64,000 nt of DNA, taken from the NCBI GenBank assembly GCA_021824915.1, contig JAKAJP010000022.1, positions 23,832 through 87,831 of the forward strand, given 5' to 3'. A program made the translations under genes and the position numbers. Within the stretch, counting starts at the first letter, position 1, and every line of letters begins with the position of its first letter. Source of the DNA: a bacterium. GTDB taxonomy: Bacteria; Patescibacteriota; Microgenomatia; UBA8517. This document shows positions 4,528 through 22,570 of the stretch, piece by piece. The notes under the pieces were generated by a model that saw nothing but the letters and a program-made list of their open reading frames with translations, was not told the DNA's origin and made no database searches.

Positions 4528-6456
4528 TTATGGACTTGTCGCACAAGCTATGCCATGAACAAACAGGGTGTCGACCTTTGTACCCAATATGGCGGTATTG
4601 CCACATTGGCTATTATTTCTAACAAACTGAACAGTGTAATTCAGATCACTAAGCTTAGGATCCTCCCAAGTTTTTAGCTTCAACACTTGGAATTTATTTT
4701 CATCGTATTTGGACAAAGTTGCCCTAAATGTATCTTCATAATACCACCAAGGATACCAAGCAAATTCGTAAATTTGGACATTTTTTGGTTGTATGCCCGT
4801 TTTAACAAGTTTTTCCGCAGTCACCCAAACTACTCCATTGGTAGTATGAAAAATCTTGGTATTAATAAACGAAATAAATAAAACAAACAACACCGCCAAG
4901 ACTGATAAAAATTTATTTAATCCAAACTTTTTTGCAAAAAGTGCCAAGCCAATAAAAACAAATGGCACAAAAGAAATGACGTATTCAAACCAAACATATG
5001 GCAAAGTAATTGTAATTAAAAAAATGGAAATAAAATTAATGAAAAGAAAAAGTTCGATCGACCTTTTTAAATCAAACTTCCTAATTCTCACAAAAAAGCC
5101 GGCGCTTACAACTAATGCCACTAATATTGCAAGTGTTACTAAAAAAAGCCACGATCCGGTAACAATCTCATTAATTGAGTACTTAGGCGAATCGTTAAGA
5201 TAAATCTTGTAAAAATAAACTGAGAAATATGCAATATCGAGAACTACTGCGCCAACATAAAAATAGATGGGCATACGGGGCTTTAGATAAAAATATTTCT
5301 TCCAAAAACTCCTACCCAAACTCAATAACATGATTGAGGCAAACGGAATTGACAGGAGCACTGACCTGTCCCAAAGTATTCTATACCAAATCGCATCATG
5401 CCCACCCCAGAAATTTATAAAACTGAAAATTTCAATCGGGAAAAAAGCACCTTCAAATTTCGGAAAAATCATTTTTGAATACGGAGGAAGATAAAAAACA
5501 AAGGCAATAAGCCCGGCAACCAAAATGAAAAAGACTACGTTCATAAACTTAAACGATTTTTTGATGTGATCTAACTTTAACTTGTAAATCAAAAATGCCG
5601 GCCAGATAAGCCCAACAACCTCCGCAAAGTAAATTCCTATTCTATTAAAAGTTTCTGCATAATACCTTGATACCATACCAACTTTTTGAAGGCTCTGCGG
5701 CCATATCAAATTCTTAAGTATATAAAGAGTTCCTTTATCCCAGGAGAATATCTGAGCCAAAGTTTTATTTCCATCTAAACTTAACCAATACGAATAGGTC
5801 AAAATTGTGACAATGGGAATTGCTAATGACCAGATGATATATTTCAACAATCGCTTAAAATTTTTATCATTGGCGGCCTTGAATACAAATATTATTAGTA
5901 TTGATGGAACAATAATTATCGCAGTCTGACGAACCAAGAAAGAGAAGCTCAAAAAAACGCTTCCTATCAACAACTTACTTAGTTCGTTTTTCTCAAAACC
6001 ACAAATATAGAAATATAGTGAAATCATAAATAGAGAAATAAACGGAATATCTGTCATAAAACTGTAGGCAAATAGAAGGTTCCAAGGAAATGCAAAATAA
6101 AGAATTGAAAAAACGGTAGATTCAAACCTTCCAACATTCAGCCTCCTTAAAATTCCATAAAAGGCAAGTATTCCAAAATAAAAAATCGTTACTGTTGAAA
6201 TTGTTAAAGCCTTGAATGAAAAACCGAAGATTTTAGAAAAAAGTGTCCCCCAATAAGCTTGGAAAATTAAAGTTGCAGTCGACCATTCACTGATCTTCAA
6301 ATACCCGTCAACAACAAGATGTTTAACGGTTTGAGAATAGGCAAAATCATCAAGGAGTGCTTTTCCGTAAATTGGGTTCATCAAAATAAACACACCCCAA
6401 TAAACAACTGAGATAATAATTACACCAAGCGATATCCGCCTCAACATCTTCTTCAT
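4528..6456 (-). CDS. GT-C fold membrane glycosyltransferase (ArnT/PMT-like, GT39/GT83 family), 642 aa
   Basis: More than 10 predicted TM helices. First periplasmic loop carries the acidic motif 'LLDDFAYSQ' characteristic of ArnT/PMT-type GT-C enzymes. C-terminal soluble domain of about 150 aa. Confidence 0.6.
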   Translation of the reverse strand: MKKMLRRISLGVIIISVVYWGVFILMNPIYGKALLDDFAYSQTVKHLVVDGYLKISEWSTATLIFQAYWGTLFSKIFGFSFKALTISTVTIFYFGILAFYGILRRLNVGRFESTVFSILYFAFPWNLLFAYSFMTDIPFISLFMISLYFYICGFEKNELSKLLIGSVFLSFSFLVRQTAIIIVPSILIIFVFKAANDKNFKRLLKYIIWSLAIPIVTILTYSYWLSLDGNKTLAQIFSWDKGTLYILKNLIWPQSLQKVGMVSRYYAETFNRIGIYFAEVVGLIWPAFLIYKLKLDHIKKSFKFMNVVFFILVAGLIAFVFYLPPYSKMIFPKFEGAFFPIEIFSFINFWGGHDAIWYRILWDRSVLLSIPFASIMLLSLGRSFWKKYFYLKPRMPIYFYVGAVVLDIAYFSVYFYKIYLNDSPKYSINEIVTGSWLFLVTLAILVALVVSAGFFVRIRKFDLKRSIELFLFINFISIFLITITLPYVWFEYVISFVPFVFIGLALFAKKFGLNKFLSVLAVLFVLFISFINTKIFHTTNGVVWVTAEKLVKTGIQPKNVQIYEFAWYPWWYYEDTFRATLSKYDENKFQVLKLKTWEDPKLSDLNYTVQFVRNNSQCGNTAILGTKVDTLFVHGIACATSP

Positions 6457-8576
6457 GGCAACTTCTTTAATCCCGTAATTGATATTTCAGCGTTTTGAAA
6501 AATACAGGCGTTTCCAACTTGGGGATCTACCAAAAATATCTGAGCTTTTCTTCCCGGGAACAAAAAAACAAAATTATTATCCGTCCAACCGGTGGCCGTA
6601 ATCGGAACCTGAGGAGTATTTATTGGGTCTGGCTCCTGAACCCATTTACCACCATCGGAGAGAATTGCCACATAACCCGGCTTTGCGTTTTGACACTGGA
6701 AATTTCCGTGCTTAATCTTTATCCCTGTAAGATAAACTTGTTTACCCATATCAATCTTCAACTGAAACCCTGTTGCGTTTTTCTCAAAATTAATAGACTT
6801 CGGTTTATACTGAGCCTCTTCCTTAAATTCTGGTCTGGTATGTGCAAGATCATTTTTCCAAACCTTCAAAAGCGGTACGCCGTCAACACTTGCAATATAA
6901 ACAGGCTCCAAATATTTGTCGTAATATTGAAACGAATACCAATACTTAGGGGGCCATTCAAAATCCATTTCCATTTCATATTCGCCTGCCCTATTTGTTC
7001 CACTCCAATAAGCGTTGGAGAAATCTATATCACTTCTCAACTTCAACCGGGGAACGTTTATCATGTTGGCTATAGGAAGACCCAGCTTGGCGTTTGGTTC
7101 AGCATTCTTATTTAGCCAATTGACGCCTTGCATATAAACATTTCCGTAGGTGTTTCCCCAATAAGGAATGTTTTTGTCTCGCGCTCCGCGAATACCGCCG
7201 ACTATTTGATTGAAATAGACATTCTCGTTGGGATGTATTTTAGCCATCTCATAAACCGAAAAAGCTAATCCCAAAAACATGACCGCATAAGCAAACTTTT
7301 TATTCCTAAGGGAATCTGCTAAAGCTTTTGCTCCAATGCCTGCAAGGATTGCCATAGCCGGAACAAATTCCATTATTTGCCTAACTCCGCCGTAAATACC
7401 GGCATTGGGATACGACGCTCTAATTACCGGTATCAAAAACCAAAGAACAACAAAAAGATAAAATCCGTCACGTCTTCTTAAAAAAATAAATAAACTTGCC
7501 AAAAGACCAAACATAGATAGAAATAATATTGGCACTTGGGTTGTATAGATTATCCAGAGAGTGGGATAAGTATTCCATCCGTGAACTATAAACTTAGACA
7601 TCTCACCTGGCGTCCCGGTACCTATTTGCTCATAAAAACCGAGGACCTTCATAGCCCCACCCATAGGGTCGTGCCATAAAAACGGCCAAAGAATATAGGT
7701 CACCCCCAAAACAACTGGTATATAGAAAAGTAATACGATCAAAAGAGGCCAAATCTTTTTCAAAGAACCAAATCTCTTACGCTTTAGAAAGATTTCCCGA
7801 TAGACTACAAACACGAGCCACGGTCCGATTACAAGCACTGAGAATAAAAGATTTAACTTTGTCCCTAACGCAAATCCAGCAAAAACCGCCGAAGCCAATA
7901 AAATCTTCCAGTTGTTTTTTTCGATACCAAAATAAAAAAGAATTAAGGTTAAGCCAAATAACGCCGCTTCAGGAGGATCTTTTATATTAAAATGGGATTC
8001 AGAAAAAAATAACGGATATGAGGCCAGAGAAATCGAAGAAATTAAAGCCGGAACAACTCCCAACTTCTTAGTGACAAAAATAAAAACTGCAAGAACTAGA
8101 ACCGAGCTCAAAAAAATCTCGTAAAAATGATAAGACTCCAAGTCCCCCATTATCCCCAACTTTTGGTAGAGGAGGTAGTTAAATCCTGCTGCAAAAATAT
8201 CACTTATGGGTGGATGACCCTCGTCATTTTTAACAAAATATTCAAAATTGTAAACATCAGAGGCAAAATAGCTCCTCCTAATGTTTGAGTTATTTGTTTG
8301 TTTGCTTTTTATAGCTTTATCAAAAAGCTCCGACTCACCCTTCAGACTTACAAAATCAGACGAACCCTTAAGTTGTGGGTAGAGAGGAAGATCTAAAAAA
8401 TTTGTTTTGCCAGTTAAAAAATAATGAAGATACGCTTGCCCTCGCTGAAAATGGAATGGTTCATCCCAGTTAATTCCATAATCTTTCATTGTAAAGGTTG
8501 CAATAAAAAGAAAGGCTAGTGCAACAAATAAACCGAGGAGAACCAACCTATTTTTTAGAAACTTCATATGTGGCAA
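6453..8576 (-). CDS. GT-C fold membrane glycosyltransferase with large C-terminal extracytoplasmic domain, 707 aa
   Basis: N-terminal 'YGINWDEPFHFQRGQAYLHY' (DE-motif loop), about 11 TM helices, then a beta-rich soluble domain of about 250 aa. ATGA overlap with the downstream gene. Confidence 0.55.
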   Translation of the reverse strand: MPHMKFLKNRLVLLGLFVALAFLFIATFTMKDYGINWDEPFHFQRGQAYLHYFLTGKTNFLDLPLYPQLKGSSDFVSLKGESELFDKAIKSKQTNNSNIRRSYFASDVYNFEYFVKNDEGHPPISDIFAAGFNYLLYQKLGIMGDLESYHFYEIFLSSVLVLAVFIFVTKKLGVVPALISSISLASYPLFFSESHFNIKDPPEAALFGLTLILFYFGIEKNNWKILLASAVFAGFALGTKLNLLFSVLVIGPWLVFVVYREIFLKRKRFGSLKKIWPLLIVLLFYIPVVLGVTYILWPFLWHDPMGGAMKVLGFYEQIGTGTPGEMSKFIVHGWNTYPTLWIIYTTQVPILFLSMFGLLASLFIFLRRRDGFYLFVVLWFLIPVIRASYPNAGIYGGVRQIMEFVPAMAILAGIGAKALADSLRNKKFAYAVMFLGLAFSVYEMAKIHPNENVYFNQIVGGIRGARDKNIPYWGNTYGNVYMQGVNWLNKNAEPNAKLGLPIANMINVPRLKLRSDIDFSNAYWSGTNRAGEYEMEMDFEWPPKYWYSFQYYDKYLEPVYIASVDGVPLLKVWKNDLAHTRPEFKEEAQYKPKSINFEKNATGFQLKIDMGKQVYLTGIKIKHGNFQCQNAKPGYVAILSDGGKWVQEPDPINTPQVPITATGWTDNNFVFLFPGRKAQIFLVDPQVGNACIFQNAEISITGLKKLP

Positions 8577-9204
8577 TTATACTAAGCACATCAGACCGCT
8601 TTGTCTTTTCCCGAAATCCCATCTTGGATAAGGTTTTATAAAAAATTTCTTCCGTGGACAACCAATGTTTCATAAATCTAATTTCTCCCAAATAGGATTT
8701 TCCGCGCCTTTTAAGAGAAGGCATAAAATTAGCAACGAAAGACGTTGATATGAAATCATAAAAAGACCTAAGGATTGAGCGGTGAGGCTCAATAAAACAA
8801 AGTTTTCCACCATTCTTTAACACTCTTTTAATCTCTTCTATCGCACGATCATACTTCATAAAATGGTGAAAAACAGAATCAACAAAAACCACATCAAAAT
8901 AATTTGCCTTAAAGGGGAGTTTTTCGGCAGAGGCCAAATAAAATTTATTGTCTCTATTTTCTTTCCTCGCAATTGAAAGAAGCTCGGGTGAAATATCAAT
9001 CCCGATCACATCTCTTATACCCATCTTTCTTAATACTTTTACGTTAAGGCCATCACCACAACCCAAGTCCAAAACCCTATCTTTTCTACCAATCTCCAAA
9101 AATGAAATCCGCCTTTTTCTTTCATTGAGATTTCTCCTCGTTTTAATGCAAGCTTCTTCCCAATGGTGAGATTGGCCCCATTTATTAACGTTAGTATTAG
9201 CCAT
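8548..9204 (-). CDS. class I SAM-dependent methyltransferase
   Basis: Motif I 'VLDLGCGDGLN' and motif II 'DVVFVDSVFHH'. Start placed at MANTNV (Met22) to avoid a 59-bp overlap with the upstream aminotransferase. Confidence 0.7.
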   Translation of the reverse strand: MANTNVNKWGQSHHWEEACIKTRRNLNERKRRISFLEIGRKDRVLDLGCGDGLNVKVLRKMGIRDVIGIDISPELLSIARKENRDNKFYLASAEKLPFKANYFDVVFVDSVFHHFMKYDRAIEEIKRVLKNGGKLCFIEPHRSILRSFYDFISTSFVANFMPSLKRRGKSYLGEIRFMKHWLSTEEIFYKTLSKMGFREKTKRSDVLSIIATYEVSKK

Positions 9205-9208
9205 GAAG

Positions 9209-10729
9209 CTATTGTACAACAGGAACGATGTGGGGATAAGTATCAGACTCGGAATTGCTATATTCAATTGATTTTCCCATCACAAAATCCGAGTTTTCCG
9301 CAAAACGAATGGCGTGTGAATATTTAGGCTCCAAAATTACTCCGGATCCTTTTTCTATATCAATTCTTTGTGTCTCTTTAGTCTTAACGTCAATAAGGTC
9401 AACCTTTGCAGATCCACTTGTTAGAAAGAAAAAGACTTTAGTCTTTTTATGAAAATGGTTCCCCATAACTGCGCCTTTTTTCATCGATCCGAGGGATATA
9501 TTTTTCCATTCGCTCCCATTTAATATTTCATTAAATACCCCTCTTTCATCCTCCCTTTTATAAGTTGGCCTTATTATTCTTGCCCCCCTCACTCTTAAAG
9601 ATAAAAGTATCTTAACTACCCGCTCCTGCTGGGATTTTGTTATTCCGAGACCCGAAGGCAAATAAAATCCACGAAGGGCAACATCCTGCGAAACGGGATA
9701 TTTTCTACTTATGTCAGGATATAACGGGTTTTTCCCATTTTTGAAAACCGGCTGCAAACTCATGGATAGATAAAAAAGGTCCGTTCCAACACCCTTCTCG
9801 TTAAGTAACGCCATAACCTCATCGCGTGTTCGTCCGAAAGATTCCTTAATCAAAACTCCAAACATCCAAAAAGTGCTCTTGCCCCATGGCGGAGATTGCA
9901 TGATCTCAATTTCAGGAACGTTCTTGAGTAGTTTCTGATAGTGCCTTGCAATTTCCTGGCGTCTTTTTATTTTTTTATCGATTTTCTCAAACTGGGCATA
10001 GGCAACCGCCGCCTGGATATCAGTCAAACGATAATTAAACCCTATATATCTATGAATGAATCTCGGTTTCTCAAAACCCTGACTCCTTAAAATCCTGGCC
10101 ATGTTGGCAACATTCTCATCGTCAGTTACAATCATTCCACCCTCACCGCTTGTTATATTTTTACTGGCATAGAAACTAAAACATCCGACGTCCCCCATTG
10201 AACCAACCTTTTTGCCACCGACGGTCGCCCCATGGGCCGCACATGCGTCCTCAATTACGTAAAGGTTGTGTTTCTTTGCAATCTTCAATATTGCCTCCAT
10301 ATTCGCAGGGTTACCGTACATATGCACCGGCATTATCGCCCGTGTTTTCCTTGTGATTTTCTCTTCAATTTTAGTTGGATCCATACACCAATATTTATCA
10401 ACATCCACCAAAACCGGTTTAACGCCGGATAATATAGGCATGCTGGCAGAACACATAATCGTAAAATCCGGAATTATTATTTCGTCTCCAGGTCCCAATC
10501 CCAATGAAGTAACCGCAAGATGAATCGCGGTTGTGCCATTACTGCAGGCAACACCATATTTTTTCCCTACCCATTTTGCGAACTCTTTTTCAAACTTTTG
10601 AGTAAACGGGCCATTTGCAGAAATCCAGTTATTTACCTTTATCGCCTCGGTAAGATATTTCAACTCATTTCCATCTAAAACAGGTTCACTGGTGGGAATA
10701 AATTCGCTGTCTGCCATATTGTCCTGCAA
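9209..10729 (-). CDS. bifunctional fusion: DegT/DnrJ/EryC1-family PLP sugar aminotransferase (N-term, about 375 aa) plus FdtA/WxcM-like sugar 3,4-ketoisomerase cupin (C-term, about 130 aa)
   Basis: N-terminal region aligns with nucleotide-sugar aminotransferases ('GDEIIIPDFT', 'HMYGNPANM', PLP-Lys region 'SFYASKNITSGEGG'). C-terminal 'ERGVFNEI…GNHFHKKTKV…SGSAKVDLID…' matches the FdtA cupin including the RGxHAHKK-type His pair. Confidence 0.7.
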   Translation of the reverse strand: MQDNMADSEFIPTSEPVLDGNELKYLTEAIKVNNWISANGPFTQKFEKEFAKWVGKKYGVACSNGTTAIHLAVTSLGLGPGDEIIIPDFTIMCSASMPILSGVKPVLVDVDKYWCMDPTKIEEKITRKTRAIMPVHMYGNPANMEAILKIAKKHNLYVIEDACAAHGATVGGKKVGSMGDVGCFSFYASKNITSGEGGMIVTDDENVANMARILRSQGFEKPRFIHRYIGFNYRLTDIQAAVAYAQFEKIDKKIKRRQEIARHYQKLLKNVPEIEIMQSPPWGKSTFWMFGVLIKESFGRTRDEVMALLNEKGVGTDLFYLSMSLQPVFKNGKNPLYPDISRKYPVSQDVALRGFYLPSGLGITKSQQERVVKILLSLRVRGARIIRPTYKREDERGVFNEILNGSEWKNISLGSMKKGAVMGNHFHKKTKVFFFLTSGSAKVDLIDVKTKETQRIDIEKGSGVILEPKYSHAIRFAENSDFVMGKSIEYSNSESDTYPHIVPVVQ

Positions 10730-10779: not shown

Positions 10780-12039
10780 ATGGCCGTGGCAAAATCAAAA
10801 ACTAAGAAGTTACCAATATTTATTATTTCCGGTAAATCCCCAATCGGCGCTTTCGGCGGGGGCTACTCCGCATATGCCTACAACTTAGCAAAAATTCTTA
10901 CCGATCTAAAATACAGAGTTTATATTTGCGCACTGGGTGATAAAAACGAAAAGATAAAAACCGAGGTAGGAACATTAATAAGTTTTAAGCCCGCTATTCC
11001 ACTACTGAATATCAAAGTTTACGCCCTTCCCGGACTTCCCTTTTATTCTTTCCTGTTTGCAGAAGGAATTAAGAAAGTTTTAGATAAAGAAAAATATAAA
11101 AAGGTGATTGTCTGGGGAATTGGCCCGTGGGGTTTTGCCGGAGTTATACTCAAAAAACTTTTAGGAAAAAGAATAATCCTTGCCGATAATTACTTTACTA
11201 CTACCCGCCATGAATGGTCACGTGGTGTAAAAGCTCTACGTATTAGCGACTACGGGCTTATACAAAAGTTAAAATACTCAATGATTTATTGGTCGGTCGT
11301 TCAATTTATCGCACTACTCGAGTCAATTCTCCTAAAAAATGCGGATGTAATAATTACAAACTACAAATCTACCGAAAATATTATTAAAAAGGAGTTTAGA
11401 ATAAGAACCAACAAATTTAGGAGGCTCGACTTCTTTGCTAGCGCCCGTAAGCGCGGTCAGGGCAAGATTACATCAAGCAAAAACTTAAAGCTTCCCAAAA
11501 AATACATATTTTATTTTTCGCGACATGATCCAAGGAAGGGGGTAAATTTTCTTCTACATGCATATAAATTGATTTTGGATCTGGGTTATAAAATTCCGCT
11601 CCTTATAGCCGGCGGAGGAGATATGCTTCCCGCAAATAAAAAGCTGGCAGAAAAACTAAAAATCTCAAAACAAACCAAATTTCTAGGGTTTGTCGATGAT
11701 CCTAAGATCATTATGAAAAGATGCTCCGTATTTGCTTTCCCATCTATCGAAGAAGGTGCCGGAGCCTTAACAATTAACGAAGCAATGGAAATGGGAATTC
11801 CAATCGTCTCTACAGCCTGCGACGGAATTACCGAGGATATAGAAAGCGAAAAAGAAGGACTCCTTGTACCCATGGAGGATCCCAAATCGATGGCTTTTGC
11901 GATTACAAGATTGCTTGATGATCCTAAATTTGCACAAAAGTTGGCAAAAAACGCCCGGAAACGATACCGTTCAGATTTTTCCTACTCTAAAATGAAAAAG
12001 GATATTGCAAAGCTCACTTCTTCCTTAGAATCCAGATAA
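10780..12039 (+). CDS. glycosyltransferase family 4
   Basis: C-terminal GT4 motif 'FAFPSIEEGAGALTINEAMEMGIPIVSTACDGITE', 419 aa. One of only three plus-strand genes. Confidence 0.75.
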   Translation: MAVAKSKTKKLPIFIISGKSPIGAFGGGYSAYAYNLAKILTDLKYRVYICALGDKNEKIKTEVGTLISFKPAIPLLNIKVYALPGLPFYSFLFAEGIKKVLDKEKYKKVIVWGIGPWGFAGVILKKLLGKRIILADNYFTTTRHEWSRGVKALRISDYGLIQKLKYSMIYWSVVQFIALLESILLKNADVIITNYKSTENIIKKEFRIRTNKFRRLDFFASARKRGQGKITSSKNLKLPKKYIFYFSRHDPRKGVNFLLHAYKLILDLGYKIPLLIAGGGDMLPANKKLAEKLKISKQTKFLGFVDDPKIIMKRCSVFAFPSIEEGAGALTINEAMEMGIPIVSTACDGITEDIESEKEGLLVPMEDPKSMAFAITRLLDDPKFAQKLAKNARKRYRSDFSYSKMKKDIAKLTSSLESR

Positions 12040-12772
12040 AGTTTGGAAAAACCGGCTCAACCAAACGCCAAAAATTCGCCGGAAAAATCCGTGTTAACCA
12101 GCCAATTTTGGCAATATCTCTAAAACCATAATAGTTTGGGTTTTTAATAATATCGGGCGTAATCTTTTTTACTTCAAAATTCCGGGTTAGTTTAGCAAGC
12201 TGCCAATAATCCATGTATTTTGCACTAAACCCATCTGACCTGCCAAAAATTCGAACCACAAAGTCAGCCAGAAATTTCGGAAGAAATGCTAAAAGCGGAA
12301 GATGGTACTGCGCATCCCAAAGGGTATATTTATTTCTTGCACCAAAAAAAACTAAACCACCATTTTTAACAACCCTAAAAACTTCTTTTATAAAATCACC
12401 GGGATATTCAAAACAATAATAAACTTGATTTGCGACAACAACGTCAAAACTTTCATCCGGTAAGCCAGTTCTTATTGCGTCGCCAACACTAAAGTGAAGG
12501 TTTCTCCGCCTGAAGTTTTTCTTAGCGATAGTAATTGAGTTTTCATCGTTATCCAGTCCGTAAACTTGGCCAAAATATTCCGAAAGGTAGTTAGTAATTA
12601 TTCCTGACGAGCAGCCGATATCAAGCAGGGCCAGTGAGGTAAGTTTTCTATCGCTCAATTCCCTTCTCAAAACACCCCAAATCTGTCTTGCTATCTTTAA
12701 CCTTCCTTTTTTTTCTAAAACAATAGGATTAAAACTCGAATATTCGCGGAAAACTGAAGAAGATGTAGCCAT
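12014..12772 (-). CDS. class I SAM-dependent methyltransferase
   Basis: 'LLDIGCSSGIITNYL…VYGLDNDENSITIAKKN…DVVVANQV' methyltransferase motifs I-III. Confidence 0.7.
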   Translation of the reverse strand: MATSSSVFREYSSFNPIVLEKKGRLKIARQIWGVLRRELSDRKLTSLALLDIGCSSGIITNYLSEYFGQVYGLDNDENSITIAKKNFRRRNLHFSVGDAIRTGLPDESFDVVVANQVYYCFEYPGDFIKEVFRVVKNGGLVFFGARNKYTLWDAQYHLPLLAFLPKFLADFVVRIFGRSDGFSAKYMDYWQLAKLTRNFEVKKITPDIIKNPNYYGFRDIAKIGWLTRIFPANFWRLVEPVFPNFIWILRKK

Positions 12773-12774
12773 TG

Positions 12775-13308
12775 CTACTTAACAAGATTTAGGACCTTTG
12801 CCAATACGTCATGAATTTGACCAATTATTCTGTCACCGTTATCGTCGGTCAAATCTTTTAAAGTTGGGGAGAAAGCGTCAATGTTCTCGATTTTTTTAAT
12901 TACTTCATCTCTCACTTGCGGGGTATCACCGCTATTTCTGGCTTTTTCAAAAAGTTTTTGTGAAGATTCAGCTAGCCCCAACGATTTAGAAAGTGATTTG
13001 TCCGAAAGTTCCAGTTTTCCACCCCGGGCCAACTTCTCAGATTCCAAAATTCGTTTTGTCGCTAGAGTGAGATCATATTCCGCCTTCTTTGCCTCGCCCA
13101 CCAAAAGCATCCCCGAAAACTTCTCTTTCAGTTCTTTAAGAAAAAAAAGTGGAGAATCAAGAGTTAGTCCGGCGCTTAACGGCCAGAAAAGTTCATAGCT
13201 ATTTGGAACGGGTGTAGGACTTGGAACCGGAGTTTTGGCGAAAGCCGGGCTAAAGGAAAACAAAAAAACAGCCAAAGTCAAAATTAACACAGAAAGAGAT
13301 TTTCTCAT
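12775..13308 (-). CDS. secreted hypothetical protein with Pro/Thr/Ser-rich N-terminal segment
   Basis: Signal peptide 'MRKSLSVLILTLAVFLFSFSPAFA' followed by 'KTPVPSPTPVPNS', then a helical Lys/Glu-rich domain. Start taken at Met6. Confidence 0.5.
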   Translation of the reverse strand: MRKSLSVLILTLAVFLFSFSPAFAKTPVPSPTPVPNSYELFWPLSAGLTLDSPLFFLKELKEKFSGMLLVGEAKKAEYDLTLATKRILESEKLARGGKLELSDKSLSKSLGLAESSQKLFEKARNSGDTPQVRDEVIKKIENIDAFSPTLKDLTDDNGDRIIGQIHDVLAKVLNLVK

Positions 13309-13329
13309 ACTTACGAAAAACATTATACT

Positions 13330-14355
13330 TTAGTTTGTATTATCCTGTCCACCAAGTCTATTTATATTCGCATCAACCATCAGAGCAACTAGGTGATTAA
13401 AATCCACTTCAGGCTTCCACCCTAAGGTGCGTCTTGCAAAAGACGAGTCCCCAATCAAAGGCCCAGTTTCGGTTGGGCGGATAAATCTCTTATCTACTAC
13501 AACAAATTTTTTATAATCAAGGCCGACATACGCAAAAGCCTCTCGGCAAAAATCAGACACTTTATGAACCACACCTGTAGCAACAACAAAATCGTTAGCT
13601 TTAGGCTTCTGCAAAGATAGCCACATAGCCTTCACGTAATCCCCGGCAAAACCCCAATCACGTTCTGCAGCAAGATTTCCAAGAGCAACTTTACCACCTT
13701 TGACAATTGGTTCACCTTCTTCGTTCAAATGTTTAGACGTATCGATTCCCAACTTGGCGCAGGCAGCTGCATAGGCGATCTTTTGCGTAACAAACTCCAA
13801 ACCCCGCCTCGGGGATTCATGATTAAAAAGAATTCCACAGGAGATAAACATATCATAACTTTTGCGATAAATCCTGGCGATGCTATGAGCATATAGCTTG
13901 GCAGCAGCATAAGGATTTGCAGGATTAAAAGGTGTTTCTTCGTTTTGCGGAACCTCGCGTGCCCAACCAAACATCTCACTGCTGCTTGCCTGATAAAACC
14001 TAGCTTTCGGACAAACATCTTTGGCTGTCTCAATAACCCTGTGGGCACCCAAACCTGTAATTTGAGCTGTATAAACCGGTTGCTTAAAAGATTCACCCGG
14101 AGAACTTTGTGAAGCCAAATTATAGATTTCATCCGGAGAGACTACCTTAAATATTTTTTTAAGAGAAACCGGGTCAAGAAGGTCGCTATAAAAAAGATTG
14201 ATTTTATCCTGCACGTGAGCAATGTTGTCAAAAGCGCGTTGGCTGGATTTCCTGACAACGCCATAAACCTCGTAATTCTTGGAAAGTAAAAGTTCCGCCA
14301 GATAGCTTCCGTCCTGTCCAGTAATGCCGGTGATCAGCGCTCTTTTTTTGGCCAT
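13330..14355 (-). CDS. gmd: GDP-mannose 4,6-dehydratase
   Basis: 'KRALITGITGQDGSYLAELLL', 'YAAAKLYAH' catalytic YxxxK, 'GILFNHESPRRG'; about 340 aa from MAKKRAL start. Confidence 0.85.
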   Translation of the reverse strand: MAKKRALITGITGQDGSYLAELLLSKNYEVYGVVRKSSQRAFDNIAHVQDKINLFYSDLLDPVSLKKIFKVVSPDEIYNLASQSSPGESFKQPVYTAQITGLGAHRVIETAKDVCPKARFYQASSSEMFGWAREVPQNEETPFNPANPYAAAKLYAHSIARIYRKSYDMFISCGILFNHESPRRGLEFVTQKIAYAAACAKLGIDTSKHLNEEGEPIVKGGKVALGNLAAERDWGFAGDYVKAMWLSLQKPKANDFVVATGVVHKVSDFCREAFAYVGLDYKKFVVVDKRFIRPTETGPLIGDSSFARRTLGWKPEVDFNHLVALMVDANINRLGGQDNTN

Positions 14356-14356
14356 A

Positions 14357-15307
14357 TTAATCCAGCACTTCAGAAATATAATCGCCTTCAAAATTCTCCT
14401 TCTGATTGAAGCTTGTAATCATCTCTGCGAGTAAACCTGTTGAGACAAATTGTACACCCATTATCATTAAAAGAACTCCAAGAAATAGTAGTGGGTATCG
14501 ATACTGAATACTTCCGGTAGTAAATCTAAGATAAGCAATATAAATTCCGATCAAAAACCCTCCGGCGAAACTAATAAACCCGAGAAGTCCGAAGAAGTGC
14601 CCGGGTTTCCTGGTGTAGCGGGTCAAAAAGGCAACCGTTAAAAGATCCAGCAACCCCTTTAATGCTCGCTCGAATCCATATTTCGATTTACCATACTTCC
14701 TTGCCCTATGAGCCACAGGAATCTCTGCAACCCTAAAGTTCCTTTTAACGGCAATGATGGGAATTAAACGGAAGAGTTCTCCATAAAAAAAGTGGATATT
14801 CTCAATAACCTCACGTCTAAAAGCCCGAAAACCACAGTTAACGTCATGAAGCTTAACGCCGGTTACTAATCTACTCACAAAGTTGTAAGCCCGACTCGAG
14901 ACGACTTTGCTAATTGGGTCATGTCTTTTTTTCTTCCATCCAACGACCAAGTCGTAACCCTCTTCAACTTTGGAAATGAAACTCGGGATTTCTTTGGGGT
15001 TGTCCTGAAGATCCGCATCCATCGTAATTATAATTCCGCCAACAGCCTGATTAAATCCGGCCTGAAGGGCTGTCGCTTTTCCCCATCCTCCGCGCAATTT
15101 TATAACTTTTACCCTTCGATCATACTTATGAATTTCCTTAAGTTTCTGAAAAGTTTTGTCTTTTGAGCCATCGTCAACAAAAACTATCTCAAATGATCTT
15201 TTCGCTTTTTTCATAACAGCGGCGATCTCGCTATAAAGTGGTTCGATAGAACCTTCCTCGTCTCTCGCGGGAACAACGAAGGAGATAAATTTATTTATCA
15301 TCGCCAT
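14357..15307 (-). CDS. GT2 polyprenol-phosphate glycosyltransferase (GtrB/ArnC/DPM1-like) with C-terminal TM helices
   Basis: 'FVVPARDEEGSI', 'VFVDDGSKDKT', 'DADLQD' (DxD), followed by two C-terminal TM helices as in GtrB/ArnC. Confidence 0.7.
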   Translation of the reverse strand: MAMINKFISFVVPARDEEGSIEPLYSEIAAVMKKAKRSFEIVFVDDGSKDKTFQKLKEIHKYDRRVKVIKLRGGWGKATALQAGFNQAVGGIIITMDADLQDNPKEIPSFISKVEEGYDLVVGWKKKRHDPISKVVSSRAYNFVSRLVTGVKLHDVNCGFRAFRREVIENIHFFYGELFRLIPIIAVKRNFRVAEIPVAHRARKYGKSKYGFERALKGLLDLLTVAFLTRYTRKPGHFFGLLGFISFAGGFLIGIYIAYLRFTTGSIQYRYPLLFLGVLLMIMGVQFVSTGLLAEMITSFNQKENFEGDYISEVLD

Positions 15308-16416
15308 AAATATACATCATTAATAAGATTTAAGCTAATTTGACGGGACCTTACCCAATCAAAATTTTTGCTCCAGATAGCCGCTCCGCGGACAAGTTTT
15401 TCATAATTCCCCCGATTTCTAGTAACTGATAAAATTGCCTCTTTCATTGAAGAGGGGTTTCTTTCACAAATTAATCCACTAACACCATTCTTAATGGAAT
15501 CAACCAAACCCGCAGAATTATATGCAACAACGGGGGTTCCAACGAAATTTGCTTCTATATTTACCAGACCCCAACCCTCGTGAATGGAAGGATTAATAAG
15601 TAGACATGATTTCGAAAGAAGTCGAAACTTCTTACTTTCATTTACATATCCCCAAAATTTAATACGATTTCCCAAAGGTTTTGCAAAATTCCTGATTTTT
15701 TTCTCGTAATCCTTATTTTCTCCTTTTCCAATTACCCAAAAACGGAAATTATACGAATCTTTTAGGAGCAGAAAACATTTAATCGCATCTTCAATTCCCT
15801 TATCCTTTGACAAAATACCCAAAAAACTTATTGCACCTTTCACTTTGTTGTTTATATTAGTTTTCGGTTTTAGTGCTGGTAAAATGACCCCATGAGGAAC
15901 TATGTAGATTTTATTTCTGGAAATACCATATCCAGCCAAATCTTTTTTCGCAGAATCCGACCCTGTCATGAAAGGTACGTTTCTGTAAAAGAGAAAAAAA
16001 ATCGGTTCAAATAGAAAGCCCAAAGTCCCGATAATTAAATTAAGAGGAAAGGCCAGAGAATTCTTTAACCAAACATCTCTGGCTATTTCTTGAATAACCG
16101 CAAGCTTCGGTTTTCGCGAATAGATGGGTGTAAAAAACGGAACCCCGTGGAACTGATCAACAATAAAATTAAAATTACTCCTATTCTTGATGTAATAAAA
16201 AAATCCGGAAATCTGGACTCCCAGATATTGAAAACCTCCTCTGACAATCTTAACCCCATCTATTTCTTCATCACTTCTTAGACCTCCCGGCTGAGACGAG
16301 AAAAGAGTTACATTATGTCCGGCCGCCACCCAACCCTTCATATGTTCATGCATAACCTGCTCTGCCCCACCGGCAAGTGGGTGTTTCGGGTCCCTCCAAG
16401 AAAAAACTAAGATATT
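15298..16416 (-). CDS. glycosyltransferase family 4
   Basis: 'MNILVFSWRDPKHPLAGGAE' N-terminus and 'LINPSIHEGWGLVNIEANFVGTPVVA' C-terminal GT4 motif. Start set at MNILVF, leaving a 7-bp gap to the upstream stop. Confidence 0.7.
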   Translation of the reverse strand, partial: NILVFSWRDPKHPLAGGAEQVMHEHMKGWVAAGHNVTLFSSQPGGLRSDEEIDGVKIVRGGFQYLGVQISGFFYYIKNRSNFNFIVDQFHGVPFFTPIYSRKPKLAVIQEIARDVWLKNSLAFPLNLIIGTLGFLFEPIFFLFYRNVPFMTGSDSAKKDLAGYGISRNKIYIVPHGVILPALKPKTNINNKVKGAISFLGILSKDKGIEDAIKCFLLLKDSYNFRFWVIGKGENKDYEKKIRNFAKPLGNRIKFWGYVNESKKFRLLSKSCLLINPSIHEGWGLVNIEANFVGTPVVAYNSAGLVDSIKNGVSGLICERNPSSMKEAILSVTRNRGNYEKLVRGAAIWSKNFDWVRSRQISLNLINDVYLWR

Positions 16417-16423
16417 CATAAAC

Positions 16424-18280
16424 CTATTGTACCCTCCAAATCTCAGCATTGGCATTGCTAAAAATTTTTTCAACTCCAAAATCTCCGGGAGAAAAAGGCA
16501 ATTTTTCTACATAGTTCTCAAATTTAACCAAATAAATATATTTCGCACGCAACTTGTCAAACTCAGTTTTTGCCCCTTTCTGGTCTTTGGCGCTAAAAAT
16601 GGTTTTATTGTAAATCACCGGCATACCAGAATACTTACTGACATATCCTCTAAGATTTGAAAACTCGGGAGGTCTGTTTTTAGTGTGCCATGAGCATTGC
16701 AAACACTCTCCGTCGTAAACAACAACATTTCCATATGGTTGAGACTTTAAGTATATTAATGCATAGACCTCACCCTGAGGTATTACATAATCCACTTTCT
16801 TAAAATAATTCCAGCCCCGCCCAATCAATAGATAAAAAAATGCGAGCTTCTGTTTAAAAAAATGCAAGGCTTCGGAAGAAAAACCTTTGATATTAACACC
16901 CATATCCGAAACCAAATTATTAACGATCAAAATCTTAACGCCGCCGTCAACCTTCGTAACATTGACGAGCGCAGACTTCTTTATGAAGTCTGGTACATTT
17001 ATGTTTTTCCCTTTTATCGTAAAGTAGTCGCTACCCGGAATTATTTCAGTATCCCCTCCCAATATCCACAAATCTTTAGAATTTGAGACGTTATCAATAA
17101 CCGCAGGAACATTTTCAGATAGAGTAAATTGAAAGTTCGGAGAATTGTAATAAGGATCTTTCAAACTTGTTCCGTAAATTCTTAGGTCTAAAATCCTTAA
17201 CTCATTGGTGTTATTATCCTTAACATAAAACAAGCGATATCTTGCACCCCCGTACCAAAAAGAGCTTACATTTTCTCCAAGAAGGTCCCTTGATTCAATC
17301 CTGTAATCAGGTGTACCCGAAAATTTCTTTCTGTACCAATCCGAAAAATCGGACATAGTAACAATATTCACACCCCCCACCCTAAGTTCATTTGCGTATT
17401 CAAGTTGTTTTGCATACTCACCTTTATAACCAGCAGGATCAAGGTCTGCCTCTAATCCGATTGTAACTTGAGAAAACCCGTTAAGATTACCGCTTTCAAG
17501 ATATAAATTAACAAGCTTCTTAAAATAACTAATGTTCTGTTTCTCCGGTGCAACCAAATAATCCTGTGTACTATATAAACTGCTTTTGTATCCGTTAAGC
17601 GGATCTCTTGGAGCCCACTGAATATTAACAACGTCCACTTTTGACTCCATATCGGCCGCGGGAACACTAGAATATAGTTTGCTTGGATAATAAGCGAGTT
17701 CCCATGGCTGCCCCCAAATTTGATACCCATCTGTGGAGAATTGATCTGAACAGACAAGGTTTGCTGTCACACCGTACTTGTCATGTATATATGAAAGCGA
17801 ATAAGAATCTGTCCACCAGGAACCAACTGATTTTGGATAATAACCAAATACGCTTTTGAATTTATCAAAAATGGCATCTATTAATTTTTTACGATCTGTC
17901 TGCTCATATCCCGATAGAAAAACACTGCCGGCATGCTGCCAAAAACCCGTATCGTTATAGTTAATATGGGAACTCTGGGCTAAATTTGGCGTGATCTCTA
18001 AAAATATTCCAAATTCCTGATTTTTACCCATGCTACTTACAACTTTCATAACATCTCTATTATCCAAAGCATCATAAGTCAAAAGCCATGTGGCAGGTAA
18101 TCCATGCTCTTTTACAATTCCATACTCGCTTTTAACGCTTTCCCCGGGGTTTTTATTATAGGAAGATATGCGGACTGGATTAACTATGGTTACAAACCTA
18201 TCCGAACTCGATGCATCCACCCGAGGAGGAAAAATAAAAATGAAAAGAGAGAAAAAGAAAAAGAATTTTAACTTAGCCAT
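16424..18280 (-). CDS. secreted hypothetical protein, 618 aa (possible carbohydrate-active/deacetylase-like N-terminal domain)
   Basis: Hydrophobic signal peptide 'MAKLKFFFFFSLFIFIFPPRVDA', no further TM segments, many N-x-S/T sequons. No motif recognised with confidence. Confidence 0.4.
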   Translation of the reverse strand: MAKLKFFFFFSLFIFIFPPRVDASSSDRFVTIVNPVRISSYNKNPGESVKSEYGIVKEHGLPATWLLTYDALDNRDVMKVVSSMGKNQEFGIFLEITPNLAQSSHINYNDTGFWQHAGSVFLSGYEQTDRKKLIDAIFDKFKSVFGYYPKSVGSWWTDSYSLSYIHDKYGVTANLVCSDQFSTDGYQIWGQPWELAYYPSKLYSSVPAADMESKVDVVNIQWAPRDPLNGYKSSLYSTQDYLVAPEKQNISYFKKLVNLYLESGNLNGFSQVTIGLEADLDPAGYKGEYAKQLEYANELRVGGVNIVTMSDFSDWYRKKFSGTPDYRIESRDLLGENVSSFWYGGARYRLFYVKDNNTNELRILDLRIYGTSLKDPYYNSPNFQFTLSENVPAVIDNVSNSKDLWILGGDTEIIPGSDYFTIKGKNINVPDFIKKSALVNVTKVDGGVKILIVNNLVSDMGVNIKGFSSEALHFFKQKLAFFYLLIGRGWNYFKKVDYVIPQGEVYALIYLKSQPYGNVVVYDGECLQCSWHTKNRPPEFSNLRGYVSKYSGMPVIYNKTIFSAKDQKGAKTEFDKLRAKYIYLVKFENYVEKLPFSPGDFGVEKIFSNANAEIWRVQ

Positions 18281-19055: not shown

Positions 19056-20303
19056 TCACCTAGCGGGCTGATTATACCTCAAGTATGCCGCTTCACCCAA
19101 AAGCATCAGGGTAGAAACAATCAGCGATACCTGGATAACTTCCTTAATGCTTTCATGGAAAATCCAAATGAAAACAATCTGGGATAGAGCCGCAACCACG
19201 GGAAATATTATTACCCTAGTCCTTCCAATAGACAAGGAAAAATTAACCAACAAAACCGCAAGTGTATAGACCAAGATAAAAAAACCCATCCAGATAAGAT
19301 CTTCTGAAGCGGATAAATAAGCATTGCCATACAAAACCCCTATAGCCAGATTTGGGAACAGATAATAGAGAGATACTATAAATAGCGATATAAAAAGAGT
19401 CGCTCCAAAAGACGCCCAAAAAATCTTTTTATATTTACCCCCTTTCGCTACTCTTCCGGAAACAACAGGAAACATCACGGAAGATATCGGAGAAGAGGCA
19501 AAAAAAATGATCTTTCCTAGAGTGGAAAGGGCTGCGTATATTCCGGCATTAAACGGCGAAAGAAAATGCTTAACCAAAATAATATCAGTTGTAAAAAGAG
19601 ATGTAAAAGCCAGAGCTTGTAGTAAAACAGGCAAAGAATACCGCAAAAATGGGTAAATATCATAATCGACACTCCCGACGTCAGATTTAACCAACTTTCG
19701 GATATAGGGCAAGGATACGAAATAAGCCAACACACCGCCCAGCAAAACTCCATACATAGCCCCCAAAACCGAATAACCCAAAGCAATAAGTAAAACGCCC
19801 AATACAATCTTTATTACAGACGAGGCCATATTCGGTAAAACAAAACCCATAAATTTAAGAAGGCCTTGGGATGTTGCTTGGTTGACCAAGGTTATCAAAG
19901 AAAAAAACAGAATTGGTGAAATTAGTATCACCAAAAAAACATTGTTTATATGCAAAAACGAAGCAATAAAAGGCGAGACAAACAATAAAGCAATTGCCAA
20001 AATAAAGGCAATTATTAAGACTAGTTTATTTATCGCAAAATAAATACGTCCCGCGGACTTATCGGTCTCTGCGGAAGAAATAAATTTCACAACAGCAACC
20101 GAAGTTGAAGTCGGAACAATTGCAACAATATAAAGAATCGAGAATAAACTGGCTAAAACTCCGTAGTTTACAGGTCCCAACATCCGTCCAACCACAAGAT
20201 GGTACGCGTAATTAATGACATTGACGGCCATGCTACCACCAATCATGATAGCGCTGCCCGAAAAAAGCGGGTGTCTTAGAAAATTAAAAATTTTCTTATT
20301 CAT
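19056..20303 (-). CDS. oligosaccharide/polysaccharide flippase (Wzx-like, MOP superfamily)
   Basis: About 12 TM helices, and conserved N-terminal region typical of PST-family flippases. ATGA overlap with the upstream gene. Confidence 0.6.
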   Translation of the reverse strand: MNKKIFNFLRHPLFSGSAIMIGGSMAVNVINYAYHLVVGRMLGPVNYGVLASLFSILYIVAIVPTSTSVAVVKFISSAETDKSAGRIYFAINKLVLIIAFILAIALLFVSPFIASFLHINNVFLVILISPILFFSLITLVNQATSQGLLKFMGFVLPNMASSVIKIVLGVLLIALGYSVLGAMYGVLLGGVLAYFVSLPYIRKLVKSDVGSVDYDIYPFLRYSLPVLLQALAFTSLFTTDIILVKHFLSPFNAGIYAALSTLGKIIFFASSPISSVMFPVVSGRVAKGGKYKKIFWASFGATLFISLFIVSLYYLFPNLAIGVLYGNAYLSASEDLIWMGFFILVYTLAVLLVNFSLSIGRTRVIIFPVVAALSQIVFIWIFHESIKEVIQVSLIVSTLMLLGEAAYLRYNQPAR

Positions 20304-21448
20304 GATAACCAATAACCACGGATAAAAAACATCTCTGAAACAATTAAAGAAACCGCCATTAGTATATATAGCAGAAATTTAAAAATTCTGGGAACCTTAT
20401 TCAAATAAAAGGCAACCAGGATAAATGCCGGAAACAATATCAAAACATACCTTGGTATCGATGAAAAACTACCGGAGAATGTCGGCAGCAAATAACCCAT
20501 GGAAAGAAAAAGTGCATAACTAAACCTGAGTTTAATAAATGACCAAACAGATAAAACCAAAAATATTGCTCCTGTAAAAAATTCAAAAAACACAACATAG
20601 ACCGAAGGAAAATAGTTGATATTTAGTGAAGGAATGATTCTAAAAATATATCTGTAAAATACCTGGGGCAACAAAATTAGATTATCAGATCTCTGCGCGC
20701 CAAAAACACTGACGGTATGATAGAAATTAATCGGATCCCCTGTTGCCCGCCAAAGATAGTATATATAGATCAAAAACCCGATCATTGCCAAGGGCAAGAC
20801 TAAAACCAACTTCCACCAACCCCCATCAAGCTTCTTATGGGCCTTATAAAATTCAAAAAAAATAACGGGTACCAAAATTATTCCCACCAATCTTGTAGCC
20901 GAAGATAATCCAGCGAGGATTGCCGAATAAAACCATTTTTTCTTTCTGGCAAAATAAAAAGACCAAACGGATAGTGCCAAAAAAAGACTTTCTGTGTACA
21001 CCGCCCCAAAATAAAATGATGTGGGAAATAATAGAAGAAGAATAAGAGTTGTCTTAGCGACTGAATCTTCGTAGTCCAACTTGACCAGCTTCCATAGACC
21101 AAAAAGAGCAACGATTAAACCGAAATGAGAAACCAGAAGACCGGAAAACACATAGCTTCCGAAACCATTAGCCCAAATTCTTGTAAAAAACCTGATCAAT
21201 AGTGGAAAAAGCGGAAAAAAATAATAGGTCAACGGTCTATATCCCTCGCGTGCTAAGGCAATATAATGCTCTCCGTCAAAATTTGCCCACGACCAAAAAT
21301 ACGGGTTTTTTAGATAATTCAATAGTCCTCCGCCCAAAAAATCATGCTGAAGCGGAAGAAGTCTAATGGCAAGATATTGCAGAAGAAAAAGGGTTAGCCT
21401 CCAAACAACGAAAAGCCCGATTATGAAGTAAATATTTTTCCTAGACAT
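20300..21448 (-). CDS. GT-C fold membrane glycosyltransferase, PIG-V/mannosyltransferase-2-like
   Basis: 'FDGEHYIALAREGY' and 'YYFFPLFPLLIRF' resemble the PIG-V-type DxxWYxxIAxxGY motif. Paralog of 62551..63711. About 9-10 TM helices. Confidence 0.5.
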   Translation of the reverse strand: MSRKNIYFIIGLFVVWRLTLFLLQYLAIRLLPLQHDFLGGGLLNYLKNPYFWSWANFDGEHYIALAREGYRPLTYYFFPLFPLLIRFFTRIWANGFGSYVFSGLLVSHFGLIVALFGLWKLVKLDYEDSVAKTTLILLLLFPTSFYFGAVYTESLFLALSVWSFYFARKKKWFYSAILAGLSSATRLVGIILVPVIFFEFYKAHKKLDGGWWKLVLVLPLAMIGFLIYIYYLWRATGDPINFYHTVSVFGAQRSDNLILLPQVFYRYIFRIIPSLNINYFPSVYVVFFEFFTGAIFLVLSVWSFIKLRFSYALFLSMGYLLPTFSGSFSSIPRYVLILFPAFILVAFYLNKVPRIFKFLLYILMAVSLIVSEMFFIRGYWLS

Positions 21449-22547: not shown

Positions 22548-22570
22548 ATCCAAATTATACTCGAGGTGGA

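Follow-up and report, generated by a model that had tools for sequence, protein, structure and literature searches.

Introduction

Patescibacteria, the bacteria of the candidate phyla radiation (CPR), have tiny genomes and live as episymbionts. In the CPR genome considered here, tens of kilobases are devoted to glycosyltransferases of the GT-C type, without known acceptors. What do these enzymes serve, and is a small secreted protein encoded among them their substrate, their partner or a bystander? We approach this question through a stretch of 64,000 nucleotides (nt) of contig JAKAJP010000022.1 (assembly GCA_021824915.1; lineage Microgenomatia, UBA8517), here called the window, and through one gene in it, at 12775..13323 on the minus strand, which encodes a protein of the Pfam family DUF5667. 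A preliminary description regarded this protein as a candidate O-glycosylation acceptor, perhaps a dedicated one, by analogy with substrates of PMT-type GT39 enzymes in Actinobacteria.

Linkage of the DUF5667 gene to a glycan module and to GT-C genes is conserved among relatives at 30-58% identity, and this linkage tracks the folded domain of the protein, not the Pro/Thr stretch at its mature N-terminus. The reading that we put first, tentatively and with somewhat less than even confidence, is that the protein serves the glycan pathway outside the cytoplasm as an accessory or binding component without enzymatic activity, and carries a tether that is possibly glycosylated. It is ranked first, and a dedicated acceptor second, because both sequence conservation and gene order go with the folded domain and persist where the Pro/Thr stretch has been lost.

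Results

A conserved helical domain of the DUF5667 family

The gene and its parts are the following.

12775..13323, minus strand: DUF5667 open reading frame (ORF), 182 aa plus stop from the first ATG, as taken from the ORF list and the sequence
13237..13323, minus strand: predicted signal peptide, residues 1-29 (MFFVSMRKSLSVLILTLAVFLFSFSPAFA), recognized by its n/h/c layout and by family conservation, with a predicted signal peptidase I (SPase I) cut after A29
13198..13236, minus strand: Pro/Thr/Ser spacer, residues 30-42 (KTPVPSPTPVPNS), a predicted disordered linker and candidate O-glycosylation site
13147..13197, minus strand: most conserved segment, residues 43-59 (YELFWPLSAGLTLDSPL), with a mean of 3.14 bits/column
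12778..13146, minus strand: five-helix bundle in the AlphaFold2 (AF2) model, with helices at residues 60-73, 77-100, 104-131, 135-158 and 161-181

Residues 53-148 match Pfam PF18915 (DUF5667) with 35.3 bits (E=1.6e-8), above the gathering cutoff of 27, and the same family is matched by all 82 relatives that were aligned. A word-indexed search with the single protein returned the window protein itself and one orthologue at 76% identity; the family emerged with an exhaustive HMMER search, which gave 497 cluster representatives at E<=1e-3, of which 206 reach E<=1e-10. Nearly all of the best 150 listed of these 497 representatives are 165-205 aa long, and their common architecture consists of a signal peptide, a variable linker, the motif [ND]-S-[FY]-E-L-F-W-P-x-[VST]-A-G-[KR]-T and a helical domain. 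The source annotation of the relatives, where present, is 'hypothetical protein'. Named records come from Candidatus Woesebacteria, Blackburnbacteria, Microgenomates and other Patescibacteria, not from Actinobacteria, and the host is therefore taken as a CPR bacterium and not an actinobacterium. NCBIfam gave no match for the protein, and the best hit of a sequence-profile search of the PDB, a designed SNARE at E=0.03, was not meaningful.

The AF2 model built on the 82-sequence alignment has a mean predicted local distance difference test (pLDDT) score of 93.6 and a predicted template-modelling (pTM) score of 0.79. It shows a linker of lower confidence (residues 24-41), a one-turn helix (42-45), the conserved segment in extended form (46-59) and then the bundle, which is free of cysteine. 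Conservation is unevenly distributed over this fold: helices 1 to 5 carry 2.97, 2.86, 1.64, 1.62 and 1.47 bits, so that the first two are conserved and the last three variable. Residues P48, K63, K90, R91, E94 and L98 are invariant, and F46, W47 and G52 are each kept in 81/82 members. The linker, at 1.61 bits/column, ranks with helices 3-5 among the least conserved parts. Most members have a basic folded part, the family median isoelectric point (pI) being 9.05.

Weak Pfam side-matches were also seen in the family, to the SbsC spectrin-like repeat, part of an S-layer protein (8/82 members, best E=0.004), and to DUF5100 (11/82, best E=0.0017). The cell-wall-polymer-binding lead that they offered was dropped, as the matches are too weak. 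Structural comparison of the bundle raised another idea, namely an extracellular lipid-binding bundle like that of fungal Mp1p, which would shield or shuttle a polyprenyl-phosphate-linked sugar or a glycolipid. We consider this very improbable: the matches have E-values of 0.1-0.5, none of them significant, and any up-down helical bundle scores in this way. A chain-length regulator resembling Wzz was a further role considered.

Probable export through the Sec pathway

The N-terminus has a basic n-region (MRK), a hydrophobic core of ~16 residues (LSVLILTLAVFLFSF) and a c-region SPAFA followed by K, which gives the cleavage site A-F-A|K. These features correspond to the classical pattern of Sec/SPase I substrates, that is a basic n-region, an h-region of 10-20 residues and small residues at -3 and -1. 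The assignment uses sequence rules together with conservation in the 82-member alignment, where position -1 is Ala in 73/82, position -3 is Val, Ala or Ile in 66/82 and position +1 is Gln in 40/82, with a median of two Lys/Arg among the first ten residues. In addition, the AF2 model places a helix at residues 3-23, followed by coil. A lipobox ([LVI][ASTVI][GAS]C) was found in none of the 82 members, and the mature part is free of Cys in 82/82; a lipoprotein processed by signal peptidase II (SPase II) is thus ruled out. The DUF5667 protein is very probably secreted by the classical Sec/SPase I route; we infer export and cleavage from these sequence features. The canonical signal peptide with A-F-A|K that the preliminary description had read here is borne out by the layout of the sequence and by a cleavage pattern conserved throughout the family.

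The same description had placed the gene at 12775-13308. The ORF is real, and 13308 is an in-frame internal ATG that gives an alternative form of 177 aa, the first ATG lying at 13323. Both starts occur in public gene calls, and an identical protein is called on contig JAKBYH010000001 of NCBI assembly GCA_021843035.1. A promoter-like sequence, TGGACA-18-TATAAT (11/12), occurs at 13322..13351 on the minus strand, with its -10 box overlapping the first ATG; if functional, it could favour the start at 13308. The site lies within the conserved 3' end of the upstream gene for GDP-mannose 4,6-dehydratase (Gmd). The 76% orthologue keeps the site but not the second ATG. On balance, neither start is favoured.

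Conserved linkage to a glycan module

Four genes of the window serve as landmarks for comparison with other genomes.

12014..12772, minus strand: class I S-adenosylmethionine-dependent methyltransferase, the downstream neighbour (Pfam Methyltransf_11, E=1.5e-23)
13330..14391, minus strand: Gmd, the upstream neighbour (Pfam GDP_Man_Dehyd, E=5e-108)
15298..16479, minus strand: GT4 glycosyltransferase (Pfam Glycos_transf_1), whose orthologue lies immediately upstream of DUF5667 in most relatives
6453..8576, minus strand: 707-aa GT-C (PMT_2/PMT; Pfam PMT_2 E=2.2e-9, PMT E=4.3e-6)

The stop codon of Gmd lies 6 nt ahead of the DUF5667 ATG, and the methyltransferase starts 2 nt past the DUF5667 stop. 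All three genes are on the minus strand, in agreement with the earlier placement of the gene between a methyltransferase and Gmd in one operon orientation, and gaps of this size imply co-transcription. The order Gmd, DUF5667, methyltransferase is kept in the 76% orthologue. A relative at 44% identity keeps nearly the whole module (GT4, membrane protein, Wzx, GT2, 627-aa protein, GT4, DUF5667, methyltransferase), with Gmd and a GT2 gene relocated.

To extend this comparison, loci of relatives were collected with a narrow alignment of 18 sequences, and 15 loci were taken from species-representative genomes. Among these 15, the DUF5667 gene follows the orthologue of the GT4 gene in L012-L017, L019 and L021, and in L024 with a methyltransferase in between; it abuts the orthologue of the 707-aa GT-C in L018, L020, L021, L022 and L024. 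This GT-C orthologue also stands beside DUF5667 in the further loci L030, L033, L049, L061, L062, L084 and L110. Over all loci, contact with a GT-C gene was found for 15/54 distinct small DUF5667 genes. A methyltransferase homologue adjoins DUF5667 on the same strand in L011 and in the 76% orthologue, and on the opposite strand in L012 and L014-L016.

Some of these records carry unexpected titles. L013 and L016-L019 (CAZOVJ01, CAZOUV01, CAZGEA01, CAZPLB01, CAYYLO01) and L014 (JBAZVO01) are entitled 'uncultured Gammaproteobacteria' or 'Woesearchaeota archaeon'. These look like taxonomic mislabels, given that the loci hold the same module as records of Woesebacteria and other Microgenomates, rearranged in L018. 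Duplications of the gene were observed as well. L062 carries tandem small DUF5667 genes beside a GT-C gene (9312..10401), and L015 carries a second, more divergent copy without the FWP motif, immediately after a GT-C gene (16041..16532).

In a reciprocal test, 80 metagenome loci were fetched with the GT4 orthologue as bait, many of them from groundwater of the Hainich aquifer ('Hain' contigs); 71 of the 80 were independent and had enough downstream sequence. DUF5667 lies immediately downstream in 27/71 and within 6 kb in another 11. The remaining 33/71 have no DUF5667 gene within 6 kb; part of them probably resemble L020, where the gene is 7 kb away and thus beyond such a flank.

These 33 loci bring up the question of whether the gene, located in a very large glycan island, simply encodes a small secreted protein that has nothing to do with the function of its neighbours. 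The window is almost entirely made of glycan genes, with ~20 candidate GT-Cs, so that any gene here would be 'inside the cluster'. Against this, the same immediate neighbours recur at 30-58% identity in many metagenome-assembled genomes despite rearrangement, the intergenic gaps of 2-6 nt imply co-transcription, and the two loci with two copies each have one by a GT-C gene. We therefore give a mere passenger only a small chance.

A variable Pro/Thr/Ser linker

After the A29|K30 cleavage site the mature protein begins with KTPVPSPTPVPNS, continues with YELFWPLSAGLT and then runs through ~125 mostly helical residues; its N-terminal peptide is KTPVPSPTPVPNSYELFWPLSAGLTLDSPLFFLK. Ser and Thr account for 5/13 linker residues, and the pLDDT of the linker is lowered to 76-86. 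A Pro/Ser/Thr run of this kind occurs only once among the 52 window ORFs of at least 150 aa, so the Pro/Thr/Ser-rich mature N-terminus reported in the preliminary description stands. The run is no tandem repeat, and an origin from a tandem repeat in the DNA is ruled out.

How widely is this stretch shared? The 76%-identical orthologue retains it (KTPISSPTPVPNS / KTPIPSPTPTPNS). Among the 82 members, linkers are 4-23 residues long (median 16) and contain at least three Pro in 27/82 and none in 22/82; several consist of just KDVSS, QEVNS or QSGS, and others are acidic. A cruder linker estimate was also made on 145 members. Compared with the fold, the linkers of the 82 members contain more Ser plus Thr (31.9% vs 12.0%) and more Pro (12.7% vs 2.2%), and they are depleted in basic and hydrophobic residues. 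At least three Ser/Thr are found in the linkers of 69/82 members, and 68/82 have Ser at position 42, which directly precedes the motif's aromatic residue. Enrichment in Ser, Thr and Pro is a common trait of disordered linkers and spacers. The composition accordingly fits a glycosylatable disordered segment and fits a plain disordered spacer equally well.

The linkage described above persists where the stretch has changed or vanished. P0031, a member with an acidic linker (locus L029), keeps its context of GT4, DUF5667, epimerase and DegT genes, and the near-linkerless member P0025 (locus L030) lies in the order Wzx, GT2, 599 aa, GT4, PMT_2, DUF5667, GT2. The preliminary description had named, as the outcome that would speak against it, orthologues lacking the stretch and not linked to GT-C genes. 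The result is divided: linkage to GT-C genes is conserved, as it had expected, and the stretch is missing in many relatives.

These data bear directly on the proposal of a dedicated glycoprotein acceptor, in which the main purpose of the protein would be O-glycosylation of its N-terminal stretch by the neighbouring GT-Cs, making it a glycan-bearing component of the surface or coat. The protein has what such a role needs at first sight, that is secretion and a disordered Ser/Thr/Pro-rich N-terminus directly after the cleavage site, with the family-wide Ser/Thr enrichment and the frequent Ser42 just described. An ArnC/GtrB-like donor synthase and PMT_2/YfhO GT-Cs are encoded in the window, and there are precedents in PMT of Mycobacterium tuberculosis (PMC12331936) and in the streptococcal GtrB/PgtC2 system and Pgf cluster. 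On the other side, the stretch is gone in many relatives that share the gene context, including those without Pro and those with linkers of 4-5 residues such as KDVSS and QEVNS; sequence conservation lies in the folded domain and not in the linker; and the enrichment is typical of disordered linkers anyway. Judged by the alignment, selection works on the folded DUF5667 domain rather than the spacer, which speaks against acceptance of a glycan as the chief purpose of the protein. The unconserved stretch, the context kept without it and selection on the fold do not support a dedicated acceptor, which we regard as possible but doubtful. O-glycosylation of the linker as such is plausible by analogy, because linkers are Ser/Thr-enriched family-wide and the window encodes both an ArnC/GtrB-like synthase and ~20 candidate GT-C genes.

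The surrounding glycan machinery

Between 4528 and 63711, counting both strands, GT-C genes are extraordinarily dense: 16 ORFs match PMT_2 and 2 match YfhO, which makes 18 of the ~20 candidate GT-C genes. Large membrane ORFs without a Pfam match are found at 29261..30724, 32371..33657 and 46700..48361, and the 64-kb window also contains two Wzx-like flippases, many GT2 and GT4 genes, and methyltransferases. Further genes of interest are the following.

40760..43183 (E=4.5e-24) and 49807..51534: YfhO-family genes
20300..21448: 382-aa membrane protein
14357..15307, minus strand: ArnC/GtrB/DPM-synthase-like polyprenyl-phosphate sugar synthase (GT2), from a phmmer search against the PDB
16424..18280, minus strand: 618-aa secreted protein, a DUF3863-like enzyme of deacetylase/glycoside-hydrolase fold

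Are the GT-Cs of the PMT type? A bona fide GT39 PMT would be expected to match both PF02366 (PMT) and PMT_4TMC. The 707-aa GT-C has no sequence match in the PDB. Five window GT-Cs pass the cutoff of PF02366 weakly (27-45 bits), of which four score higher on PMT_2 and the fifth (24339-25988) about equally, and PMT_4TMC (PF16192) has no match in any GT-C scanned in the window. Because PMT_4TMC is unmatched and the 707-aa GT-C lacks a sequence relative in the PDB, the designation 'PMT-type GT39' is not established. The actinobacterial framing of the gene cluster does not suit this organism: the host belongs to the Microgenomates/Patescibacteria, and the enzymes are of the PMT_2/YfhO kind with weak PF02366 scores.

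The product of 14357..15307 matches ArnC (9hwj, E=1.7e-46) and GtrB (5eke, E=2.2e-29), both over residues 6-298 of 316, and the dolichol-phosphate mannose synthase of Pyrococcus over residues 8-211, its catalytic part (E=1.7e-21). By these similarities it likely makes the lipid-linked donor used by the GT-C enzymes. With this identity, the donor side of an extracytoplasmic, lipid-sugar-dependent transfer would be encoded two genes upstream of DUF5667.

Part of the cluster resembles the Arn pathway. The minus-strand genes at 9209..10729, 13330..14391, 14357..15307 and 16424..18280 comprise Gmd, a fusion of DegT aminotransferase and cupin/WxcM-like domains, the ArnC-like synthase and an ArnD-fold enzyme, and ArnT-like PMT_2 GT-Cs are present as well. 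Such a set suggests a lipid-linked amino-deoxy-sugar donor. An ornithine/aspartate carbamoyltransferase gene (22571..23479, plus strand) lies on the opposite strand within the cluster and overlaps the longest-ORF start of the GT4 gene at 21441..22649; most loci whose gene order is otherwise the same lack it there.

The 618-aa protein as a second candidate

The preliminary description had put forward the 618-aa protein as a second acceptor candidate, secreted and rich in N-x-S/T sequons. Secretion holds, since the protein has a signal peptide; sequon-richness does not, as its 7 sequons compare with 4.8±2.0 in 5000 shuffles (p=0.19). Only one sequon, N558, is conserved (32/40 homologues), and the others are kept in 1-14 of 40. 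With sequons neither enriched nor, bar this one, conserved, a role as an N-glycosylation acceptor is ruled out. The protein belongs to a large family of hypothetical proteins with at least 1405 matches, of which the 120 best listed are 44-72% identical to it and some match DUF3863. Its gene is optional: of the loci initially collected through the DUF5667 gene, only L011, L024 and L030 have it. From its sequence, the 618-aa protein is best read as a secreted glycan-modifying enzyme.

A membrane-anchored relative

One distant relative, the only one with this architecture, places the DUF5667 domain in a different setting. Locus L026, from Nomurabacteria, encodes a 229-aa protein with a cytoplasmic N-terminus, a transmembrane segment and an extracytoplasmic DUF5667 domain, directly after and overlapping a gene for an extracytoplasmic function (ECF) sigma-70 factor with Sigma70_r2 and r4_2 domains (7654..8866, plus strand). 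Such a gene order is the usual arrangement of sigma and anti-sigma factors, and the two products form a putative sigma/anti-sigma pair. From this single case, DUF5667 may be a module of general use for binding or sensing outside the cytoplasm, and the short Microgenomates form would be its free secreted version. The architecture of the L026 protein fits a module of this kind better than a mere glycan carrier.

Could the window protein itself be a sensor? It might be a stand-alone envelope-sensing or ligand-binding domain akin to anti-sigma-factor ectodomains, with the task of reporting or buffering the condition of the surface glycan, and the conserved basic surface of the family would suit an anionic envelope polymer. 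L026 is, however, a single example, and the short proteins, whose signal peptide is cleavable and which lack a cytoplasmic part, cannot by themselves pass a signal through the membrane. Neither the window nor the loci sharing its gene order have a sigma factor gene adjacent to DUF5667. An identity as an ECF anti-sigma factor was rejected on these same grounds, a cleavable signal peptide only and no adjacent sigma gene, and we hold the sensor to be improbable.

Discussion

The picture that we favour, an accessory or binding component of the glycan pathway, can be laid out in steps. The pre-protein would be exported via Sec and cut by SPase I, leaving a mature product of ~17 kDa that would consist of a flexible Pro/Thr/Ser spacer, the conserved FWP..AG(K)T segment and the cysteine-free five-helix bundle. 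The 'short secreted' DUF5667 subfamily of Microgenomates and other Patescibacteria is a conserved member of an envelope-glycan module, together with GT4 and GT2 enzymes, a Wzx-like flippase, an ArnC/GtrB-like synthase, amino-deoxy-sugar enzymes and many GT-C transferases. Through a face made of the N-segment and helices 1-2, which is usually basic across the family, the protein may hold or present a glycan, a lipid-linked precursor or the ectodomain of a GT-C. The Ser/Thr/Pro spacer would serve as a tether, and its possible O-glycosylation by GT-Cs of the cluster would be secondary to function. We infer both the binding role and any glycosylation.

Several observations weigh against this picture. 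The window protein is near-neutral (pI 6.8) and an exception in a basic family. Its residue 53 (13165..13167, minus strand) is Leu, Leu/Met being found in it and in the 76% orthologue at a position that is Lys or Arg in 74/82 members (AGLT vs AGKT). Once cleaved, a soluble protein would have to be retained in some way by a monoderm cell. The Ser/Thr enrichment of linkers throughout the family fits a glycoprotein acceptor equally well, and the 33 loci without a DUF5667 gene within 6 kb mean that it is not an obligatory neighbour of the GT4 orthologue. Finally, a literature search for DUF5667/PF18915 found no publications.

A more committed proposal, which we consider rather unlikely, is that the protein is a dedicated extracytoplasmic subunit of the expanded GT-C machinery, either a protein primer or carrier for an envelope glycan or an adaptor that gives one of the ~700-aa PMT_2 GT-Cs its acceptor specificity. 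If true, it would be a first handle on what dozens of CPR GT-C paralogues modify.

Taken as a whole, the preliminary description was essentially right in what it observed; its acceptor mechanism finds support in part, and its framing by Actinobacteria and GT39 and its second candidate do not hold. The DUF5667 family is already known but uncharacterised, and the type of linker is familiar from secreted proteins. The conserved pairing of a small secreted protein with the CPR GT-C/GT4 module was not found in the literature searched and is a modest lead. As the DUF5667 protein travels with the module across many lineages, it offers a rare non-enzymatic clue to the cell-surface product. Its link to glycosylation is plausible but unproven; should the protein be an acceptor, a carrier or an adaptor, the glycobiology of the CPR envelope would gain a practical probe.

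Comparison with known systems

The closest comparison is with the PF18915 relatives themselves (~500 representatives), which have length, signal peptide, FWP..AGKT motif and five-helix bundle in common with the window protein; the latter differs by Leu at the near-invariant Lys/Arg53 and by being less basic than most. The L026 protein of Nomurabacteria has the same extracytoplasmic DUF5667 domain, but it possesses a cytoplasmic region, an uncleaved transmembrane anchor and a sigma-70 neighbour, whereas the window protein has only a signal peptide and is encoded among glycan genes. Fungal Mp1p and AfMP4P, lipid-binding domains of cell-wall mannoproteins, are the best Foldseek matches in the PDB and resemble it as secreted five-helix bundles of similar size. 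This similarity is not significant (E>=0.1, TM-score<=0.5), and the proteins have no sequence relationship and belong to another kingdom.

Two bacterial glycosylation systems offer parallels to the linker. In Sec substrates, M. tuberculosis PMT acts preferentially on Ser/Thr located in unstructured termini rich in Pro (PMC12331936), and KTPVPSPTPVPNS has this character. Actinobacterial PMT/GT39 substrates, such as the M. tuberculosis mannoproteins, thus share with the window protein both Sec export and Ser/Thr in a Pro-rich unstructured terminal segment. They differ in that the host here is a Patescibacterium, its GT-Cs are of the PMT_2/YfhO kind with weak PF02366 scores, and the Pro-rich stretch is unconserved among orthologues, the candidate acceptor stretch being retained at 76% identity and variable in the wider family.

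In streptococci, GtrB together with a GT-C of YfhO type (PgtC2) glycosylates Ser/Thr-rich disordered regions beside folded domains; the Pgf cluster (PgfS/PgfM1) does likewise, and adhesins encoded by the Pgf cluster are referred to (PMC11092751). The logic shared with the window is that of a GT-A lipid-phosphate-sugar synthase, an outward-facing GT-C and a Ser/Thr-rich disordered segment by a folded domain: a GtrB-type synthase and YfhO genes are present, as is a Ser/Thr-rich, predicted disordered segment beside the fold. In contrast to the streptococcal system, the linker of the window protein is N-terminal, short (13 aa) and of a Pro-rich type. As analogies only, these precedents make such a glycosylation mechanism plausible in a monoderm.

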